Below, piece by piece: positions 4,059 to 59,718 of a DNA stretch of 64,000 nt. The stretch is from a virus (lineage: Duplodnaviria > Heunggongvirae > Uroviricota > Caudoviricetes). The stretch lies in the IMG/VR virus record IMGVR_UViG_2585427757_000006; one strand, written 5' to 3'. Position 1 is the stretch's first letter, and each line of letters starts with the position of its first letter. The position numbers and the translations under genes were made by a program. The notes beneath the pieces were generated by a model. The model saw only the letters and a list, made by a program, of their open reading frames with translations. It did no database searches and had not been told where the DNA came from.

Positions 4059-6092
4059 TTACTTAACCTGGTGGCCAGGTTTAGCACCAGCATCCGGGCT
4101 TAACAGGAAGATATCTTTCCCCCCGGGGCCAGCAGCCATTACCATGCCTTCGGAGATACCAAAGCGCATTTTACGCGGTGCCAGGTTGGCCACCATAATG
4201 GTGTGACGCCCGATCAGTGCCTGCGGATCTGGGTAGGCAGAACGAATACCGGAGAAGACATTGCGTTTTTCACCACCGAGATCCAGCGTCAGGCGAAGCA
4301 GTTTGTCAGAACCTTCTACAAACTCTGCGTTTTCAATCAGCGCCACGCGCAGGTCAACTTTGGCGAAGTCGTCAAAGGTGATAGTTTCCTGAATCGGGTC
4401 GTCAGCCAGTGGGCCAGTTACCGGTGCGGCTGTGGCTTTCACTTCTTCTTTGGATGCTTCCACCAGTGCTTCAACCTGCTTCATATCGATGCGGTTATAC
4501 AGTGCCTTGAACGGATTCACTTTATGGCCCAGCAGCGGTTGCTGGATACCATCCCAGGTCAGTTCTGTATTCAGGAATGCTTCTGCACGTTCAGTCAGTT
4601 TCGGCAGTACCGGTTTCAGGTACGTCATCAGCACGCGGAACAGGTTAATGCCCATAGAGCAAATCGCCTGCAGATCGGCATCGCGTCCTTCCTGCTTTGC
4701 CACCACCCACGGAGCCTGTTCATCAACATAGCGGTTAGCCAGGTCAGCCAGTGCCATGATTTCACGGATAGCTTTGCCAAATTCGCGGCTTTCCCATGCT
4801 TCGCCAATCACTTCAGCGGCATCAGTAAAGGTTTTGTACAGTTGCGGGTCAGCCAGTTCGCTTGCCAGCACGCCGTCAAAACGCTTGTTGATAAAGCCTG
4901 CATTACGGGAGGCCAGGTTAACCACTTTGTTAACGATATCGGCATTCACACGCTGAACGAAATCTTCCAGGTTGAGATCGATATCATCAATGCGCGAAGA
5001 GAGTTTCGCAGTGTAGTAGTAACGCAGGCTGTCGGCGTCAAAATGATTCAGCCAGGTGCTGGCTTTAATAAAGGTGCCGCGAGACTTGGACATCTTCGCG
5101 CCGTTCACCGTCACATAGCCGTGAACAAACAGGTTGGTCGGCTTGCGGAAGTTGCTGCCTTCCAGCATGGCAGGCCAGAACAGGCTGTGGAAGTAAACGA
5201 TATCTTTGCCGATGAAGTGGTACAGCTCGGCGGTGGAGTCTTTCTTCCAGTATTCGTCGAAGCTGGTAGTGTCGCCGCGTTTGTCGCACAGATTCTTGAA
5301 GGAACCCATGTAGCCAATCGGCGCGTCCAGCCAGACGTAGAAGTATTTGCCCGGTGCGTTCGGAATTTCAAAACCGAAGTAAGGTGCGTCACGGGAGATA
5401 TCCCACTGTTGCAGGCCAGATTCAAACCACTCCTGCATTTTGTTTGCCACCTGCTCCTGCAACGCACCGCTGCGGGTCCATGCCTGCAACATTTCGCTGA
5501 AAGAAGGCAGATCAAAGAAGAAGTGTTCGGAATCACGCATTACCGGTGTAGCGCCAGAAACCACTGATTTCGGCTCGATCAGTTCCGTCGGGCTGTATGT
5601 CGCGCCGCAGACTTCACAGTTATCGCCGTATTGATCCGGCGCTTTACATTTCGGGCATGTGCCTTTTACAAAACGGTCCGGCAGGAACATGCCTTTTTCC
5701 GGGTCGTACAGCTGAGAGATGGTGCGGTTTTTAATAAAACCGTTCTCTTTCAGGCGAGTATAGATAAGCTCGGACAACTGACGGTTCTCTTCGCTGTGCG
5801 TCGAGTGATAGTTGTCATAGCTGATGTTAAAGCCTGCGAAATCAGTCTGATGTTCCTGACTCATTTCGCCAATCATCTGTTCCGGTGTGATACCAAGCTG
5901 CTGTGCTTTCAGCATGATTGGCGTACCGTGGGCATCGTCGGCACAGATGAAATTAACCTCGTGGCCGCGCATTCGCTGGTAACGAACCCAGACATCAGCC
6001 TGGATGTGCTCCAGCATATGGCCGAGGTGGATTGAGCCGTTAGCGTACGGCAGCGCGCACGTCACCAGAATTTTCTTCGCGACTTGGGTCAT
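4059..6092 (-). CDS. metG: Methionyl-tRNA synthetase (677 aa from [25 protein letters not shown])
   Basis: HIGH (HLGH) and KMSKS motifs, Zn knuckle CPKCK..CEVCG. Near-identical to E. coli MetG as recalled. The track ORF has a 43-codon upstream extension; ATG taken at 6092. Confidence 0.97.
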
Positions 6093-6249
6093 AGTAGGCA
6101 TTACTTCTTTGTAGTGAAAAGGGGCTTGATAGTAACAAAATGGCCTTATGTCTGCCATGTGATAACAGCATTTCTCATAAATGATTAAATGTCGTAGCTG
6201 GAGTACACTACAAGGCGACAATTGCGCAAATTAAAATAAAGGAGACGGG

Positions 6250-7350
6250 ATGAGCGAGTCCAAATCGCCGGATGCCCTGAGAGCAATGGTAGCCGGTACG
6301 CTGGCTAATTTTCAGCACCCAACCCTGAAACACAACCTGACTACGCTTAAAGCGTTACACCATGTTGCGTTGATGGATGACACACTGCATGTCGAACTAA
6401 TCATGCCTTTCGTGTGGAATAAGCCTTTTGAAGACCTGAAAGAGCAATGTAGTGGTGATCTGCTCCGTATCACTGGCGCAAAGGCTATTGACTGGAAGCT
6501 GTCGTACAACATTGCCACGCTTAAGCGCGTCAAAAACCAACCAGGCATTAATGGCGTTAAGAACATTATCGCCGTCAGCTCAGGCAAGGGCGGCGTGGGT
6601 AAATCCTCCACGGCGGTAAACCTGGCACTGGCGTTGGCTGCTGAAGGTGCGAAAGTTGGTATTTTGGATGCCGATATCTATGGTCCATCAATTCCAACCA
6701 TGCTGGGCGCGGAAAACCAACGTCCAACCTCACCGGACGGTACTCACATGGCACCTATCATGTCTCATGGCCTGGCAACCAACTCTATTGGTTATCTGGT
6801 CACCGACGACAATGCAATGGTGTGGCGTGGACCGATGGCCAGCAAGGCGCTGATGCAGATGTTGCAGGAAACACTGTGGCCTGATCTGGACTATCTCGTT
6901 CTCGATATGCCACCGGGCACTGGTGATATTCAATTGACGCTGGCGCAGAACATTCCTGTAACTGGTGCGGTTGTGGTAACTACGCCGCAAGACATCGCGC
7001 TGATCGATGCGAAGAAAGGCATTGTGATGTTCGAAAAAGTCGAAGTGCCGGTACTGGGTATCGTTGAAAACATGAGTGTGCATATTTGCAGTAACTGCGG
7101 TCATCACGAGCCAATTTTTGGCACCGGTGGCGCACAGAAACTGGCCGAGAAATACAACACGCAGTTGTTAGGCCAAATGCCACTTCATATCTCTCTTCGT
7201 GAAGATCTGGATAACGGAACACCAACCGTTATTAGTCGTCCAGATAGTGAATTTACGGCTATTTATCGTGACCTCGCAGATCGCGTTGCTGCCCAAATGT
7301 ATTGGCAAGGTGAAGTAATACCTGGCGAAATCGCATTCCGCGCAGTGTGA
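6250..7350 (+). CDS. apbC: Fe-S cluster carrier ATPase ApbC/Mrp
   Basis: [11 protein letters not shown]-loop and the CSNCGHH motif. Collinear with E. coli Mrp as recalled; divergent from metG as in E. coli. Confidence 0.95.
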
Positions 7351-12845: not shown

Positions 12846-13436
12846 CTATTTGTTATAAACAAAACCAATATCTTTCTTGTGAGGCATATCTGCTGCTGAA
12901 AAAGCTGCGATCTTCGCGAGTCGATCACATATTTCATTTTCACGATGCCCGGCGTGACCTTTAACCCACTTCCAGCGAACATTATGTCGACTTGCGGCCT
13001 CATCCAGACGCTTCCACAGATCAACATTCTTTACCGGTTTTTTGTCAGAAGTCATCCATCCATTGCGTTTCCACCATTTCATCCACTGTGTCATGCCGTT
13101 TTTCAGATACTGGCTATCAGAGTGCAAAATAACGTTGCATGGATATTTCAAACGCTCCAGCCCGATAAGTGCCCCCATCATCTCCATGCGGTTATTGGTG
13201 GTGCTATGAAAACCATCTGAGAACTCGCGTTCCTCACCACGATACTGGAGAACGATACCGTAACCGCCCGGGCCACCCGGATTTTTAAGGCAAGAGCCAT
13301 CACTAAAGATTTTCACGGTTTTAAGCTGGGGATTGAACTCTACGACAGGCGTTGTGGGATTGGTGCGGGGGGAATTTTTGTTTTTGGCTTTTTTGCGAGT
13401 TTTTGCTTGCGATCGGGCTGGTGTCTTCGTCGTCAT
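12846..13436 (-). CDS. rnhA: Ribonuclease HI with a basic N-terminal extension
   Basis: DGSC..NPG.GG, NNRMEL-like [13 protein letters not shown] and KGHAGH..NE.CD match RNase HI catalytic motifs. Start taken at MTTKTPARS (cat 13434-13436), not the track's 13520. Confidence 0.85.
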
Positions 13437-13473
13437 ATAAACTCCTGAATCAAGCGCCGCGCCGATTTTTCCT

Positions 13474-13497
13474 CGCGCGTGCGCACACGCGTGCGTG
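13474..13497. other. 24-nt perfect alternating pyrimidine-purine tract
   Basis: cgcgcgtgcgcacacgcgtgcgtg is (YR)x12 without interruption, 38 nt upstream of the rnhA start. Confidence 0.9.
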
Positions 13498-13534
13498 TTA
13501 ATAATTATTAAAATAAACAAATTACTTCCCAGAA

Positions 13535-14000
13535 CAGGTTTTTATAAACCTGAACTGAACGAACGAAGTGAGTGAAGTTCACCTCGAACGAAGTGAGAGG
13601 TTGTCTTTTCAGGTAATACTCTCCCAGGGAGGTGAGTATAAAAATCTCTCACCAACCTGGTCGTTTCATAACCTGAAAAGTTATGGTCTAAGTCTACTGC
13701 CAGCTTAGACTTGGGAAGTTATGGATGACAGCACCCCAGAACCGAGATCTTCCCACACTTTATGAAGGGGAGTACTGGATTCAACCTCTCGAAACACCCC
13801 AGACTCGACAATCATAAAGTGACCCTTGTCTCTGCTCACTTTGGTTCCCCCTTCCCCGACACCTAAACGGCACCAGTTCTACGCTGGTAGTGAGCTTTTT
13901 TAAACCTGACGCCAGTGACGCTTACCCCCACCCATCAGGTCGAGTCTCCAGTCTACGACTGGAAACTATCAGATCTTAGCACTTACAATTCACTTTATGA
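13535..14000. other. ORF-free, hairpin-dense segment (candidate structured RNA or cis-element)
   Basis: No ORF of 60 aa or more on either strand. Perfect 10-bp long-range inverted repeats 13605-13614/13671-13680 and 13756-13765/13812-13821, further stems and direct repeats (see findings). Confidence 0.5.
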
Positions 14001-14018
14001 ATAGTTTGTACTTATCTA

Positions 14019-14249
14019 TCATTGTGATTGATTATTTTCTCTACCATGTAGTTGAACATTCAAGGCAAACACCTCATTGATCAACTCACCTAAAAGCTGT
14101 TCAACAAGTTCGCGATGCTCGCCAAGATGCAAGCACTTAATTGCCCATTCGTACAAGTTGAAAGCCTGCTCACGATCTTTCATCATTTCACGAGCCTGGG
14201 CCAGAAAATCGCTCTCTACGAGCGCAACGACATTAGTCGGGTATGACAT
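14019..14249 (-). CDS. Hypothetical protein (76 aa; track start 14273 also possible)
   Basis: SD aagga lies 8 nt upstream of the ATG at 14249. Confidence 0.5.
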   Translation of the reverse strand: MSYPTNVVALVESDFLAQAREMMKDREQAFNLYEWAIKCLHLGEHRELVEQLLGELINEVFALNVQLHGRENNQSQ

Positions 14250-38181: not shown

Positions 38182-39462
38182 CTATTGCTCAACCATTTCT
38201 GGGGTGATTTTTATTTTTCCTGTCACGGCGCTGTTGATCAGGGTGGTTTTGTATTCTTTAAGCTTTTCAATCTGCGACTTTTGGATATCAATCGTGCGAT
38301 TCAGATCTGGCTCAATTCCTTCAATGAACGAAATTATTTCTTGAATTTCATCTTTTGGTGGCACTGGAACCAATACACTTGCAAGACGATCCCTTGTTAA
38401 TTTTGGCTGTGCCGCACCAGAAATATATACCGTATAGTCCAATCCGCTTAATAATTCGGCCCAGTATTTAAAACCATGAAATTTTGGCTTAATAATATGT
38501 GCATGGTTATTCACCCAATACTTTCCAGTTGCAACAAAAGCCAATGGTGTTGACTTGCTTAGCAAATTCGCGCCATCTTCAGCGATCAAGATTAAATCTT
38601 CATCAAAGATGTAGTCATCAACATAATCGATAACACCACTTGCTCCGTAATACGGATATACGCCCTGTCTCGACTCTCTCTCAACTGCGCTTATTGGAAC
38701 TCTTCTACTGTTAAGAAACTCAAACGCATATCTCAATGACATTAAGTTCCAATGCGCTGGAATCTTACCAATCCAATCCACACCGGAGTCTTTCATTGGC
38801 ACATTGGGATCAAGCCCTTGGGTCACCGCCTGTTGGATGATGATCTGCTTACGCTCTTTCAGCAGGCTAATTTGCTGCTCTTTGATCGAAATCGCTTCGT
38901 CGATTAGAGCGGTTTTCTTGTCGAGAAAATTTGCAATTAGGGACTGCTCTTCTTCTGAAGGCAGAACAAAAGGAATCACCTTCATCCGTGCTTTTGAAAG
39001 GTCCCACTGACCAATCCTTACACCATCTGATGCACTACCAAAAAACGATACATATAACTTACTGCGTATCGCCCAATTGAAAAACTCAGGATTTATTGCC
39101 TTTGTAAAATCAAAAATAAAATACGCAGGACTTACAATTCCAGTGAACTTTGATACACCGTAAGAACCCTGCCACGCTTTCATTTTATTCATTCCAAATT
39201 GACCTTTCTCAAGCTTTTTATAGCCGCTAAGATCATCTGGTATAAAATTGTGATTTGACTCTTGATTATCCACGTCTCTCTCGATAACACCTTGTTCGCG
39301 TGTTATCGAAAGTAGTGGCAATTCAGGGCAGTTTTTGACCGACACCGGAGATAGGCACGAGCCTAACTTAACCAAGTCCCAATGCTCTGGAATCTCGCCA
39401 ATCCACTCATAACCAGAGTCACTATATTGATCATACTTTAGCGTTGAGGTAATGCTTTCCAT
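38182..39462 (-). CDS. hsdS: Type I restriction enzyme S subunit (426 aa)
   Basis: Two-fold internal repeat (WEWIGEIPEHWDLVKLG / VDWIGKIPAHWNLMSLR) with conserved central and C-terminal coiled regions. Confidence 0.85.
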   Translation of the reverse strand: MESITSTLKYDQYSDSGYEWIGEIPEHWDLVKLGSCLSPVSVKNCPELPLLSITREQGVIERDVDNQESNHNFIPDDLSGYKKLEKGQFGMNKMKAWQGSYGVSKFTGIVSPAYFIFDFTKAINPEFFNWAIRSKLYVSFFGSASDGVRIGQWDLSKARMKVIPFVLPSEEEQSLIANFLDKKTALIDEAISIKEQQISLLKERKQIIIQQAVTQGLDPNVPMKDSGVDWIGKIPAHWNLMSLRYAFEFLNSRRVPISAVERESRQGVYPYYGASGVIDYVDDYIFDEDLILIAEDGANLLSKSTPLAFVATGKYWVNNHAHIIKPKFHGFKYWAELLSGLDYTVYISGAAQPKLTRDRLASVLVPVPPKDEIQEIISFIEGIEPDLNRTIDIQKSQIEKLKEYKTTLINSAVTGKIKITPEMVEQ

Positions 39463-41891
39463 TAGGCTTCTCCCTGAACTTCCGCCACTTTCACGCCTAA
39501 TATTTGTGCAATCAAACCATCAGCCTTCTGCTCTAGATTGATAATGTCAGTTGCTACTTCTTCAAGACTACGTAATGGCTTATGCAGATAGAAATACTTA
39601 TTGAAGCTGATTTCATAGCCAATTTTTACCGTATCTAGGTTTATCCATGCTTCATCGACATGAGGCTTCACTTCATCTAGGAAGTACTGGTAAATGCTTT
39701 GCTTTAATGGAACAGATTCTGTATCTCGCAGGTCTGAATTGGTCTCGTAAGTGATATACTCGCCTTTTTTACCGCCTTCTGCTGAAGGAACGGGGTAATA
39801 ACCAAAATCTGGCAAGTCAGCGACTTCACACTCATAGCGCTCCAGCAGGTCGTTTAATTTATCACCCGTTAATTTAACTACCTTTTTAACCACTTTCTTG
39901 GCGGTTTCGTCATACCAGCTCACCGCGTGAAGAATGGCATTTTTCTCAGGTGCTGAAAGCTTAATAGCATGGGCTTTTAGCGATTTATCAACTTGGGTTT
40001 TAAAGCTATTGAAGTCATCAAATTCAATGCTACCGATGTCAGCCATCAGCGTTTGTGCAGTTTCAAGCAATGCTTTTAGCGCCAGCCAGTGTTTCACATC
40101 AAGCAGTTTGGCCTTAGCCTTAGCATTGAGACTGATGTCGTTATCTTCACACCAAGAAAGAATGTCTTTCTCGATGGATTTTAAGAAGCTCTTTTTCTGA
40201 TCTGACCCGTAGCCAGTTTTTTCGTAAACACGTTCGCCGTGCTCTGCGTACACGTACTCCATCACTTCACTAAGTTGCTTATCAAAACGCAGTGGGGCTA
40301 TGGCATCTTGAGTAAACTTGGCTTTGCGGCGATCTGGGCGCTCGATAGTGACTTTGTAGTAGCCAAAATCGTCATTGCTGAATACCTTACTGGCGATGCC
40401 AACAGGATCATTGTTTGCATCCAGTGCTCTTTCAACATCCTTACACGCGAGGTAAGTATCGGTAATTTCCGTGATGTGCTCAGGCGCAAATTCGCAGTTT
40501 TTGTTACCTAAGTTCTTGCGCAACTTACGGTAGAGCAAGCTGGCATCAATTAATTGCACCTTACCTTTACGCGCCTCAGGTTTATTGTTGCTCAACACCC
40601 AAATGTAAGTGGTAATGCCAGTGTTATAGAACAGGTTATTAGGTAACTGAACGATGGCATCTAGCATGTCGTTTTCAATGATGAAGCGACGAATATTACT
40701 TTCACCACCGCCCGCATCTCCGGTAAAGAGCGATGAGCCGTTATGAACAGAGGCAATCCGGCTGCCTAATGGACTTACGCTCGGATCTTTCATCTTGTTG
40801 ACCATCTCCATTAAGAAAAGCAGCTGGCCATCACTCGAACGTGGCGTGGCATCCACCACTTCGAGATTTCCCCAATAGTCTTTCAGGCTAACCTTAAAAC
40901 GCGGGTCAATCACATCACTGCCGTCTTTAATGTACTTCTGTTCAGACGCCCAACTCTTACCGTATGGCGGGGTAGACAACATAAAGTCAAAGCGTGAAGC
41001 CGCAAACTCGTCGGTAGACAAGGTTGAGCCTACCTTGATGTTCTCAGGGTTGTTACCTTTGATCATCATGTCCGATTTACAAATCGCGTAGGTCTCGTCA
41101 TTGATCTCTTTGCCGTAAAGGTAAATATCTCGGCTGTCGTTCGGGTATTTCTCTTCAATGAAGTTTTGAGATTCAGTGAGCATACCACCGCTACCACACG
41201 CAGGGTCGTAAACGGTCATGGTCAATGGTAGCTGCTCTTTCACTGGGTCAAAAACCAAGTGTGTCATCAGCTCAATCACTTCCCTAGGTGTAAAGTGCTC
41301 ACCGGCTTCTTCGTTATTCTCCTCGTTGAACTTACGGATCAACTCTTCGAACACGTACCCCATACCCAGGTTAGTAAGGGCTGGCATCTTGTTGCCATCT
41401 GGGTCTTCGATCGTTTCATGAGTTAAGTTGATGTAAGGGGAAACAAACTTTTCGACGACATCAAGAAGGACTTGCTTTGAGGCCATGTGACGAATTTGCG
41501 ACTTGAGGTTAAAGCATTCAATGATTTCTTTAACATTATCGCTAAAGCTAAGCAGGTACTCTTCAAAGTTGGCGAGTAATATCTGTTGGTTATTCGTTGC
41601 GGTGTTGAACAGGGATTTCAGGGTCCATTTAGATGTATTGTAAAAAACATAACCACTAGCCGCCTTCAATGGTTCATCATCAAGCTCCGTGGCTTGCATC
41701 TCTTCTTTTTGGAACTTGACCTCTTCAAGCACGGCTTCTTTGGTGGGTTCAAGTAACGTATCTAAACGTCGTAATACCACCATAGGTAAAATCACATCGC
41801 GGTACTTACCGCGAACGTACACATCACGTAAACAGTCGTCGGCAATGTTCCATATAAATGAGATGAGCTTGTTATGTACACTATGATCCAT
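39462..41891 (-). CDS. hsdM: Type I restriction enzyme M subunit (809 aa from MDHSVHNKL)
   Basis: DPACGSGGML (motif I), a motif IV variant STPPYG (canonical NPPF/NPPY), and a long C-terminal extension. ATG at 41891 has SD aggaaa; the track start at 41927 is TTG. Confidence 0.9.
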   Translation of the reverse strand: MDHSVHNKLISFIWNIADDCLRDVYVRGKYRDVILPMVVLRRLDTLLEPTKEAVLEEVKFQKEEMQATELDDEPLKAASGYVFYNTSKWTLKSLFNTATNNQQILLANFEEYLLSFSDNVKEIIECFNLKSQIRHMASKQVLLDVVEKFVSPYINLTHETIEDPDGNKMPALTNLGMGYVFEELIRKFNEENNEEAGEHFTPREVIELMTHLVFDPVKEQLPLTMTVYDPACGSGGMLTESQNFIEEKYPNDSRDIYLYGKEINDETYAICKSDMMIKGNNPENIKVGSTLSTDEFAASRFDFMLSTPPYGKSWASEQKYIKDGSDVIDPRFKVSLKDYWGNLEVVDATPRSSDGQLLFLMEMVNKMKDPSVSPLGSRIASVHNGSSLFTGDAGGGESNIRRFIIENDMLDAIVQLPNNLFYNTGITTYIWVLSNNKPEARKGKVQLIDASLLYRKLRKNLGNKNCEFAPEHITEITDTYLACKDVERALDANNDPVGIASKVFSNDDFGYYKVTIERPDRRKAKFTQDAIAPLRFDKQLSEVMEYVYAEHGERVYEKTGYGSDQKKSFLKSIEKDILSWCEDNDISLNAKAKAKLLDVKHWLALKALLETAQTLMADIGSIEFDDFNSFKTQVDKSLKAHAIKLSAPEKNAILHAVSWYDETAKKVVKKVVKLTGDKLNDLLERYECEVADLPDFGYYPVPSAEGGKKGEYITYETNSDLRDTESVPLKQSIYQYFLDEVKPHVDEAWINLDTVKIGYEISFNKYFYLHKPLRSLEEVATDIINLEQKADGLIAQILGVKVAEVQGEA

Positions 41892-59160: not shown

Positions 59161-59247
59161 TGGCGGAGAGTAATGGAATCGAACCATCATCGCTTGCGCA
59201 ATGGGACGGTTTTCAAGACCGCTTGAGCACCATGCTCCCTACTCTCC
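59161..59247 (-). tRNA. tRNA-Ser (anticodon UGA), class II, CCA encoded
   Basis: Hand fold: acceptor ggagagt/actctcc, anticodon arm gcggt-cttgaaa-accgt, variable arm with a gcaa tetraloop, T arm gatgg-ttcgatt-ccatt. Confidence 0.85.
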
Positions 59248-59249
59248 GG

Positions 59250-59399
59250 CCGTTGTGGTGGCCGGTACTGAATCTCCGGCATACGGTGCAGCCAATTAGG
59301 ACTACGGACGATCACCGCTCGCGAAAGGGAAGATTTGCGGCCGCATTTCCCTAACATCCAAGAAAGCTATCGCATCAGTCTGCGAATCCACCACAACGG
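59250..59399. other. 150-nt segment closed by a 12-bp perfect stem between tRNA-Ser and tRNA-Thr (candidate small RNA)
   Basis: ccgttgtggtgg 59250-59261 pairs with ccaccacaacgg 59388-59399. Internal hairpin agggaa..gcggccgc..ttccct. Confidence 0.3.
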
Positions 59400-59471
59400 T
59401 AAGATCACTACCTTTCGACCAGTCATTGTGCACATGAACGACGATTAACCGTAATGATCTTATCGTTGTAT

Positions 59472-59547
59472 TGGTGCCGGTTAGCGGACTCGAACCGCTG
59501 ACATCCTGCTTACAAGGCAGGCGCTCTACCAACTGAGCTAAACCGGC
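59472..59547 (-). tRNA. tRNA-Thr (anticodon UGU), CCA encoded
   Basis: Canonical cloverleaf: gccggtt ta gctc agttggta gagc g cctgc cttgtaa gcagg atgtc agcgg ttcgagt ccgct aaccggc a cca. Confidence 0.92.
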
Positions 59548-59551
59548 AATT

Positions 59552-59638
59552 TGGTGGGGAGTGATGGAGTCGAACCACCCGAGTCGCAATGACAGTAGAT
59601 TTACAGTCTACCCCGCTGCCCCTACGGACTAACTCCCC
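59552..59638 (-). tRNA. tRNA-Tyr (anticodon GUA), class II, CCA encoded
   Basis: Acceptor ggggagt/actcccc, anticodon arm gtaga-ctgtaaa-tctac, variable stem gtc/gac, T arm ggtgg-ttcgact-ccatc. The D arm is slightly non-canonical. Confidence 0.8.
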
Positions 59639-59643
59639 TAAAT

Positions 59644-59718
59644 TGGCGATGGTGGGTGGATTCGAACCACCGACCAGTTGGTTAACAGCCAACTGCTCTA
59701 CCGCTGAGCTACACCATC
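59644..59718 (-). tRNA. tRNA-Asn (anticodon GUU), CCA encoded
   Basis: Canonical cloverleaf: gatggtg ta gctc agcggta gagc a gttgg ctgttaa ccaac tggtc ggtgg ttcgaat ccacc caccatc g cca. Confidence 0.92.

Follow-up and report, generated by a model that had tools for sequence, protein, structure and literature searches.

This work concerns a 582-bp intergenic gap (positions 13437-14018) in a 64,000-nucleotide stretch of viral DNA, IMG/VR record IMGVR_UViG_2585427757_000006 (Caudoviricetes), which was analysed over its full length and is called the window below. The window represents a phage-plasmid of the SSU5/pHCM2 type, and the gap is 100% identical to Escherichia coli plasmid pM160133_p3, whose annotated gene coordinates coincide with the open reading frames (ORFs) of the window. 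As a sequence-only reading of this DNA had observed and the ORF listing confirms, the gap contains no ORF of 60 aa or more on either strand, the longest being a 46-aa plus-strand ORF (13568-13708). We conclude with high confidence that the segment is a discrete structured non-coding RNA (ncRNA) gene of about 450 nt on the minus strand. It defines a new, widespread, lysogeny-expressed and autonomously transcribed family of large ncRNAs with covariation-supported loop-to-site pairings. The principal features of the locus are as follows:

13520-13967, minus strand: large structured ncRNA gene (type 1), predicted 5' end at about 13967, 3' end somewhere in 13500-13535
13973-14001, minus strand: promoter, with -35 TTCATA (14001-13996), a 17-nt spacer and extended -10 TGcTAAGAT (13981-13973)
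12846-13436, minus strand: rnhA, left neighbour of the gap
14019-14249, minus strand: gene for a 76-aa protein, right neighbour of the gap

The evidence for a structured minus-strand RNA is primarily comparative. The segment folds better than dinucleotide shuffles on both strands (z -4.9 minus, -4.0 plus), and in the earliest alignments the stems varied in sequence yet stayed complementary, with plus-strand C-A mismatches that correspond to G-U pairs on the minus strand. Consensus folding of 60 distinct homologues with RNAalifold gave -101.7 kcal/mol for the minus strand as against -61.8 for the plus strand, while 21 non-redundant sequences yielded 86 pairs, of which 17 showed double changes that compensate each other. 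The covariation that the sequence-only reading had proposed to look for among related elements is present in an alignment of 27 sequences, which adds three more divergent lineages and was used for a curated model of 14 helices and 103 pairs, including two non-nested pairings. In this model 95.0% of cells are paired, compared with 31-49% in controls whose 3' partners were slid by 1-3 columns; 32 pairs have changed on both sides, compared with 4-12; and the covariation score is 0.238, compared with 0.05-0.09, values reached by 0 of 500 shuffles. We read the unpaired cells as concentrating in the two worst-aligned hairpins, P1 and P12. Furthermore, the helix cells hold 195 G-U combinations but only 43 A-C, an asymmetry that fixes the minus strand as the RNA strand; compensatory substitution above controls together with such G-U strand asymmetry is what is generally asked of a structured ncRNA. 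The opposite possibility, a plus-strand RNA, was rejected on the RNAalifold energy and the G-U to A-C ratio.

From 5' to 3', the model comprises the following elements, all on the minus strand:

13947-13963: P1, 5'-terminal hairpin; sequence hypervariable, stem retained
13904-13940: P2 (13940-13933 / 13911-13904); 100% paired, 5 of 8 pairs compensated
13834-13895: P3 domain (13895-13889 / 13840-13834); 95% paired, 3 compensated pairs
13756-13821: P4 (13821-13812 / 13765-13756); 99% paired
13802-13799 / 13778-13775: P5, inside P4, its loop holding GAGAGGUUG (13790-13782)
13712-13755: P6 (13755-13749 / 13718-13712)
13686-13710: P7 hairpin; 100% paired, 5 of 10 pairs compensated
13667-13685: P8 hairpin CAUAA/UUAUG; 99% paired
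13624-13660: P9 hairpin (13660-13648 / 13636-13624); 98% paired, 2 compensated pairs
13605-13613: 3' arm of PK2, CCUGAAAAG
13595-13603: 3' arm of PK1, CAACCUCUC; partner, the P5 loop; 9 bp
13537-13597: 3' domain, C-rich and G-poor; alternative folds computed
13581-13576 / 13556-13551: P11; 99% paired, 2 compensated pairs
13550-13537: P12, a weak hairpin; only 68% paired
13525-13535: conserved single-stranded motif GUUCUGGGAAG near the 3' end; UCUGGG invariant in all lineages

Freely varying stems and invariant unpaired stretches alternate along this molecule. P1 is a different hairpin-forming sequence in each lineage, with six of its seven pairs changed on both sides, and the loop of P2 carries an invariant G-cluster, GAUGGGUGGGGG (13936-13925), that is unique in the window. 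The P3 domain encloses a small stem and the invariant GGGGAAGGGGGAAC (13857-13844), likewise unique in the window; P4 occurs in the complementary variants CACUUUAUGA/UCAUAAAGUG, CAUUCUAUGA/UCAUAGAAUG and CACUGUAGG/CCUACAGUG; and P6 encloses both a further hairpin, P6a (13736-13732 / 13727-13723), and the invariant GAUCUCGGUUCUGGGG, with P6 and P6a 100% paired and supported by three and one compensated pairs, respectively. P8 shows an A-U to G-C exchange in the Cronobacter-type lineage, and the 3' domain contains CUCACUUCGUUCG twice (13597-13585 and 13572-13560). The motif GUUCUGGGAAG, which places an invariant UUCUGGG close to the 3' end of the RNA, has a second copy at 13742-13732 and a related form, GUCUGGGG, at about 13803-13796 (two exact matches as against 0.15 expected); pattern searches for the conserved motifs gave no copies beyond those listed here. 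On reading the alignment, one further candidate stem, 13616-13624 / 13631-13639, was dropped as unsupported, with uncompensated variants in homologue L007 and in the Cronobacter-type lineage.

Many of these elements had been recognised in the single sequence, and direct reading together with a repeat finder recovers them: the alternating pyrimidine-purine (YR) tract at 13474-13497, the hairpin at 13535-13552 (now P12), the stems that correspond to P8, P7, P6 and P4, the C-rich runs, a direct repeat that is in fact 13 nt long (CGAACGAAGTGAG at 13560 and 13585), an inverted repeat extending over 13605-13617 / 13668-13680 (now PK2) and the repeated aagttatgg, present as ACCTGAAAAGTTATGG / ACTTGGGAAGTTATGG. 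The six stems among them are kept across relatives as helices of the model and, P12 excepted, show compensatory change.

Of particular interest are the two non-nested pairings, PK1 and PK2, in which two hairpin loops pair with adjacent 9-nt sites, 5'-CCUGAAAAG-A-CAACCUCUC-3' at 13613-13595, in the RNA's own 3' part. PK1 is invariant except in homologue L103, where a G-C pair has become U-A by changes on both sides. The 5' arm of PK2 is the entire P8 loop, CUUUUCAGG (13680-13672), and its 3' arm lies one base from that of PK1; complementarity is maintained in three lineages, as CUUUUCAGG/CCUGAAAAG, as UUCUGG/CCAGAA by double substitution in the Cronobacter-type lineage, and as CUUUUAGG/CCUAAAAG by co-deletion in L103. 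P8 and PK2 are each supported by compensatory change, and because P8 could coexist with a 9-bp PK2 only by way of connecting loops of zero length, geometry makes it more likely that they are alternatives than parts of a static pseudoknot. The competition between these two pairings that the sequence-only reading had pointed out is therefore reasonable, a joint pseudoknot being sterically strained.

Equally important is the evidence that this RNA is transcribed as a unit of its own. The -35 element and the extended -10 place the predicted start near 13967, and a TGnTAnnAT directly upstream of P1, with an ATTTAA- or TTCATA-like -35 at the same spacing, recurs in all lineages inspected amid variable surroundings; a generic promoter scan missed it because only four of six bases match per hexamer. 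This assignment also disposes of one earlier suggestion, that a second cactttatga copy (13991-14000/14001) offers an alternative partner for 13812-13821, because the site is promoter DNA upstream of the start and is not conserved in other lineages. At the other end, the C-rich, G-poor 3' domain is followed by a U-rich, AT-rich spacer, an arrangement that, judged from its composition, would be compatible with Rho-dependent termination.

Expression data are available for the phage-plasmid Cyrano (pLF82), which is 97.3% identical over the region and whose record annotates a 44-aa ORF, CYRAN_81, inside the RNA (window ~13705-13839, minus strand). In the published RNA sequencing (RNA-seq) study, CYRAN_81 is listed as transcribed in the lysogen, its level exceeding the prophage median 12-fold (PMC9928086). 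Its log2 values lie between 6.8 and 10.35 in 10 of 10 samples from LB medium, DMEM and macrophages, compared with 3.1-5.8 for the upstream CYRAN_80 and 2.6-5.0 for the downstream rnhA (PMC9928086, S1 Table). In every sample, accordingly, the RNA interior exceeds both flanking genes by a factor of 12-40, a peak that indicates a separate transcript in lysogens, with a start and a stop of its own; its level is about that of the putative repressor CYRAN_45 in each sample, and the 76-aa gene is not co-expressed with it. A conserved extended -10 promoter of its own and a discrete RNA-seq peak are, in general terms, the marks of an ncRNA gene. With covariation, strand-specific G-U pairing, promoter conservation and the discrete peak in agreement, the structured RNA that had been put forward as a candidate from the letters alone is strongly supported.

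In the same data set, two other Cyrano genes (OV696614) stand out from the prophage background: CYRAN_43 (40268-40822), a hypothetical protein gene beside the integrase and repressor genes, at 723-fold, and CYRAN_40 (39144-39356) at 15-fold. Both may be further unannotated RNAs or toxin-antitoxin transcripts.

The annotation of CYRAN_81 raises the alternative that the transcript serves a small protein, be it this 44-aa product or a 37-aa ORF at 13542-13655, and two plasmid records likewise annotate a hypothetical protein under the second RNA type described below. We find this scarcely credible: there is no ORF common to the lineages, the fraction of variable columns is equal over the three codon phases (0.54, 0.50 and 0.55), and CYRAN_81 has no Pfam or PHROG match. 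The conserved frame and codon-position bias of a coding sequence are thus missing, and the conserved small protein gene that the sequence-only reading had named as the finding that would overturn its RNA candidate does not emerge.

Additional weight comes from 30 plasmids of a divergent Klebsiella lineage, in which a second, dissimilar RNA occupies this locus and whose Dam, 76-aa protein and RNase HI are 68%, 50% and 52% identical, respectively, to those of the window:

2726-3306 of L107 (OW968253.1), sense strand: type-2 RNA, about 430 nt; also in L109-L113

Neither nhmmer nor local alignment against shuffles found similarity between types 1 and 2, and the type-2 locus has no meaningful Rfam match. 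RNAalifold nevertheless gives -124 for the sense strand versus -96 for the other, with 11 compensated pairs among six sequences and 81 G-U cells versus 3 A-C. A TTTACT-17-TATCAT promoter precedes the type-2 RNA, which carries a 5' hairpin and ends in a clean hairpin and U7 terminator 20 nt ahead of the rnhA ribosome-binding site (RBS). Promoter, 5' hairpin and terminator together show that the locus holds an RNA gene complete in itself, and the position of the terminator before rnhA means that the downstream genes can be reached only by terminator read-through. In a Moellerella relative, the 76-aa gene is present and no such RNA was found.

The type-1 RNA is strongly conserved and widely distributed. 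Its core, 13520-13968, shares 91-94% nucleotide identity with SSU5, pHCM2, a Klebsiella phage and a Salmonella Concord plasmid, compared with 76-81% for rnhA, the 76-aa gene and dam, so that the gap is locally the best-conserved stretch. It is matched in 687 plasmid records, nearly all non-mobilizable, from Klebsiella, Escherichia, Enterobacter, Salmonella, Citrobacter, Cronobacter, Shigella and others, and is present in 12 of 12 related phage records; the RNA occurs in 232 of 5426 complete E. coli genomes (~4%), and in the E. coli genome records listed no feature is annotated over it. A search with an invariant 23-mer returned 80 IMG/VR contigs and three genome contigs. The homologue on Logan contig L104 (SRR8137545), in which nearly all C are read as T, was assembled from bisulfite-converted reads and was left out of the comparison. 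Functionally, the conserved unit spans ~13520-13967 (minus strand); of the remainder of the gap, the rightmost ~50 bp are the promoter, and the leftmost ~80 bp (AT-rich spacer, YR tract and A-run) are a separate, length-variable element.

The exact 23-mer CCTCGAACGNAGTGAGAGGTTGT also occurs in an Acidobacteriaceae metagenome-assembled genome (L016, 5357-5379) and in an IMG/VR contig (L035, 6307-6329) that have nothing else in common with the locus. In L035 it sits within an 8-bp hairpin, and chance or a shared short motif are both possible; the two sequences were treated as non-homologous to the RNA.

As to the genomic setting, the 1-kb neighbourhood is 98-99.5% identical to Escherichia phages CMS-2020a, PhiR41_1 and Cyrano and 80-85% identical to SSU5 and its Klebsiella relatives. 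Beyond the 76-aa gene come a Dam-type methyltransferase gene and, after it, an extended series of leftward genes for nucleotide metabolism; every one of these genes is on the minus strand. The right neighbours of the gap (the 76-aa gene and dam) are constant across relatives, whereas the left neighbour varies, being mostly rnhA and elsewhere DUF262, betT or hypothetical genes. About 1.8 kb downstream of the locus, and in the same orientation, SSU5 has an annotated antirepressor.

The 76-aa neighbour is modelled by AlphaFold as a three-helix protein (mean confidence score, pLDDT, 79) of a family confined to these elements; it has no fold match in the PDB and no Pfam family. It is present in 728 plasmids, 41 more than the RNA. 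A role as a Rop-like or RNA-binding partner was considered and set aside, no inference being possible. The phage RNase HI, for its part, carries a Lys/Arg-rich N-terminal extension of ~35 aa (13330-13436) ahead of its Pfam RNase_H domain (residues 40-178).

Elsewhere in the window, the chromosomal-type housekeeping genes metG (methionyl-tRNA synthetase) and apbC are carried as cargo at 4059-7350, and four clustered tRNA genes (Ser-TGA, Thr-TGT, Tyr-GTA and Asn-GTT) occupy the minus strand at 59161-59718.

Both edges of the RNA block are marked by characteristic DNA:

14001-14019: degenerate copy of ATAGGTAAGTACTTACCTAT, a ~20-bp palindrome dispersed among intergenic gaps; it overlaps the -35 and directly follows the 76-aa stop codon
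13466-13524: left edge of the conserved block, with AT-rich spacer (13498-13524), alternating (CG/CA)n tract (13474-13497) and T5/A5 run (13466-13470)
8779, 12830, 15043, 24595, 29279, 33113, 45834, 46073, 52451, 55110 and 60448: window positions of the palindrome 14-mers

The palindrome occurs in 11 copies in the window versus 1.2 expected; where gene coordinates were checked the copies are intergenic, often directly past a stop codon. Perfect copies occupy the same position in SSU5, pHCM2, the Klebsiella relatives and the type-2 lineage, and the motif is also found in PhiR41_1. It could be an operator, a weak terminator or the boundary of a promoter-stem-loop cassette. The left-edge elements are present in relatives at variable length, and where DUF262, betT or other genes replace rnhA, homology stops at the A-run to the left of the (YR)n tract. 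The junction at ~13437-13475 is a cargo hotspot, occupied by rnhA, a DUF262 protein gene, betT or hypothetical genes (left flanks of L008-L012 and L014), and two recurrent junction sequences were seen.

The alternating CG/CA tract ranges from ~8 to ~30 nt among relatives and is kept together with the RNA block; it is like a slippage-prone, Z-DNA-forming microsatellite.

These flanks invite the explanation that the locus acts at the DNA level, as a packaging site, a recombination or cargo-insertion site or a set of protein-binding repeats, with the RNA incidental. The left-edge cargo hotspot, the Z-DNA-prone tract and the palindrome at the two edges would fit, as would one phage record that begins ~300 bp from the region. 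However, the compensatory changes and the G-U excess show that one strand is selected as RNA, the record in question is UNVERIFIED and starts inside the 76-aa gene, and the hotspot and palindromes lie outside the conserved 430-nt core. Terminase genes, moreover, are located elsewhere (the Cyrano record begins at terS, and the plasmid terminases lie at 37736-39624 of L106). We regard a DNA-level function as highly improbable.

Another explanation is an RNA-primed (R-loop) origin in the manner of ColE1 RNA II or T4 oriF/oriG, in which a G-cluster transcript would hybridise to its C-rich template and RNase HI would make the primer at AT-rich, Z-prone DNA. The invariant G-clusters in the first 130 nt, the negative plus-strand GC skew over 13700-14100 (a G-rich RNA), the AT-rich stretch and alternating purine-pyrimidine tract downstream, the usual presence of rnhA as neighbour and the location within a nucleotide-metabolism and replication module all speak for it; RNA II is itself a long, structured RNA with alternative folds. 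Yet rnhA is absent or replaced in several RNA carriers, there is neither an RNA I-like antisense promoter nor a match to the RNAI model, and the element possesses RepFIB-type or rep_cluster replicons together with a primase, a DnaB-like helicase and a Pol III alpha subunit. The GC skew changes sign near 8 kb, close to metG/apbC, with no skew-based origin signal at the RNA locus, and the RNA is abundant in non-replicating stationary lysogens. In type 1 no canonical terminator was found; the type-2 sister at this locus ends in a strong hairpin-and-U7 terminator. An origin of this kind is consequently unlikely, and the lytic origin or packaging site that the sequence-only reading had kept in view finds no support, given the RNA-like strand-specific constraint, the remote terminase genes and the intrinsic terminator of the sister type.

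We tentatively favour a lysogeny-phase riboregulator of the immunity or attenuator type, although taken as a whole statement, mechanism included, this reading is somewhat less probable than not. Pairing of the loops with their sites, within or between molecules, would set the conformation of the 3' domain, a C-rich stretch similar to a Rho-loading (rut) site and containing the repeat CUUCGUUCG. The steep fall in abundance ahead of rnhA, the antirepressor annotated downstream in SSU5 and the type-2 terminator just in front of rnhA would fit this view. Since P8 and PK2 are hard to form together, they are proposed to act as a switch. Transcripts from the constitutive promoter, together with read-through from the upstream early operon, would then stop before rnhA and the variable early genes in the lysogen, and the RNA may also act as an insulator between two blocks of the long co-directional early operon.

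Several considerations weigh against this proposal. The regulatory mechanism is wholly inferred; the covarying part (~430 nt) far exceeds known immunity RNAs and is for the most part without a role in the proposed switch; and PK1 and PK2 could simply be architectural pseudoknots. The target sites have no overlapping conserved ORF or RBS, and the variability of the immediate downstream genes (rnhA, DUF262, betT and hypotheticals) is odd for a dedicated leader. RNAduplex scans of the element's own genome with the conserved loops gave only antisense self-matches and borderline matches as trans targets, the type-1 3' end showed no canonical intrinsic terminator, and the RNA-seq study does not state the strandedness of its counts (PMC9928086).

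The same autonomous ncRNA might instead act in trans as a folded particle, whether as scaffold, decoy or sponge for a conserved protein or RNA of host or phage, or as a catalytic or self-assembling RNA like other large ornate bacterial RNAs, in which case the pseudoknots would be architectural and the downstream drop in expression ordinary termination. Its size and many covarying helices would be explained in this way, as would its invariant unpaired stretches (GAUGGGUGGGGG, GGGGAAGGGGGAAC, GAUCUCGGUUCUGGGG and the three UCUGGG motifs), the 5' protective hairpin of free sequence, the moron-like architecture of promoter and, in type 2, terminator, and expression alongside maintenance genes in all conditions tested; the variable downstream genes, moreover, make a gene-specific leader role less than obvious. 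Against a particle stand the want of an identified partner, the 76-aa protein having neither a fold or family match nor co-expression in lysogens, the lack of similarity to known large-RNA models and the lack of a complementary target in the element's genome. We consider it possible but rather doubtful.

Bringing these strands together, there is very nearly an even chance, in our estimation, that SSU5-type phage-plasmids depend on a new class of ~430-450-nt doubly pseudoknotted RNA, occurring as at least two dissimilar types at one locus, expressed in lysogeny at about the level of the putative repressor mRNA and serving either as an RNA-only conformational switch in the lysogeny/lytic decision or maintenance, or as a ribonucleoprotein or ribozyme-like particle. 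If true, this would add a layer of RNA control unlike the c4, CI and CA immunity RNAs both in scale and in architecture. To our knowledge, the maintenance of lysogeny in SSU5/pHCM2-like elements is poorly understood, and we know of few large pseudoknotted RNAs of unknown function in enterobacteria. Clinical E. coli, Klebsiella, Enterobacter and Salmonella commonly carry such phage-plasmids, as S. Typhi CT18 does with pHCM2. The RNA, as the most strongly conserved feature of its neighbourhood, expressed in each sampled condition and invisible to annotation, offers a handle on the biology of these elements, including immunity, induction, copy number and cargo acquisition at the adjacent hotspot, in genetically tractable hosts for which RNA-seq data and an inducible phage, Cyrano in LF82, are at hand. 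SSU5-like phage-plasmids are reported to spread antibiotic-resistance genes (PMC9600943).

Comparison with known systems begins with the family searches. The Rfam scan that the sequence-only reading had proposed matched no family: Rfam 15 at the gathering threshold returned only tRNAs over the window, ARAGORN found no tRNA or tmRNA in the region, and matches at E<=10 over 13350-14100 were at chance level. The models for GOLLD, ROOL, OLE, raiA, HEARO, 6S, CsrB, RNase P, tmRNA and group I and II introns gave no match, nor did C4 (window at the gathering threshold; 13350-14100 at E<=10) or RNAI (window and region), and the RNA contains no conserved plus-strand promoter. In the literature searched for ncRNAs, origins and immunity RNAs of SSU5 and pHCM2, no description of this RNA was found.

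The closest parallel in logic is provided by the immunity RNAs P1/P7 c4 (immI), P4 CI and N15 CA, which, as here, are encoded by a plasmid-prophage or satellite from a promoter active in the lysogen. The likeness extends to the position upstream of co-directional silent early genes (the annotated antirepressor in SSU5), to the two loops complementary to two closely spaced 3' sites of the same transcript, and to the sharp fall in transcript abundance after the RNA. The differences are nonetheless considerable: the RNA described here has ~450 nt and at least 14 covarying helices, whereas c4 and CI have ~70-80 nt (the Rfam C4 model describes ~77 nt), a five- to sixfold difference in size; it has no known processing signals; its downstream genes are variable; and its target sites carry neither a conserved ORF or RBS nor a canonical terminator, whereas in P1 the c4 target sites overlap an ORF and RBS (icd). 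Of the earlier suggestion of a P1 c4 or P4 CI kind of RNA, the two-loop, two-adjacent-site logic stands, while membership of the c4/CI family is not supported.

ColE1 RNA II offers a second parallel, as a ~0.5 kb structured, constitutive plasmid RNA with alternative pairings and G-rich segments, and RNase HI, functionally relevant for ColE1, is genetically adjacent here. In contrast to ColE1, however, neither an antisense RNA I, an RNAI model match nor a signal of Pol I dependence is seen, the element has Rep-type replicons and itself encodes a primase, a helicase and a polymerase, the RNA can be retained without rnhA, and the sister type-2 RNA ends in an intrinsic terminator.

In being large, highly structured, rich in invariant unpaired nucleotides, carried by mobile elements or phages and discovered by conservation rather than by phenotype, the RNA also resembles GOLLD, ROOL, OLE, raiA and HEARO, from which it differs in its restriction to SSU5-like phage-plasmids of Enterobacteriaceae, its fixed early-operon position and its expression during lysogeny. 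Similarly, morons and the promoter-stem-loop (PeSL) cassettes of T4-type phages share with it the organisation of an autonomous, prophage-expressed unit (promoter and, in type 2, terminator) between phage genes, flanked by a dispersed intergenic palindrome and lying beside a region of modular gene shuffling, but its product is a conserved core RNA of a phage-plasmid group and not an accessory protein gene. We class the RNA with the regulatory RNAs of phages and plasmids, though not as a member of any known family, and there is a substantial probability that it proves to be a distinct class.

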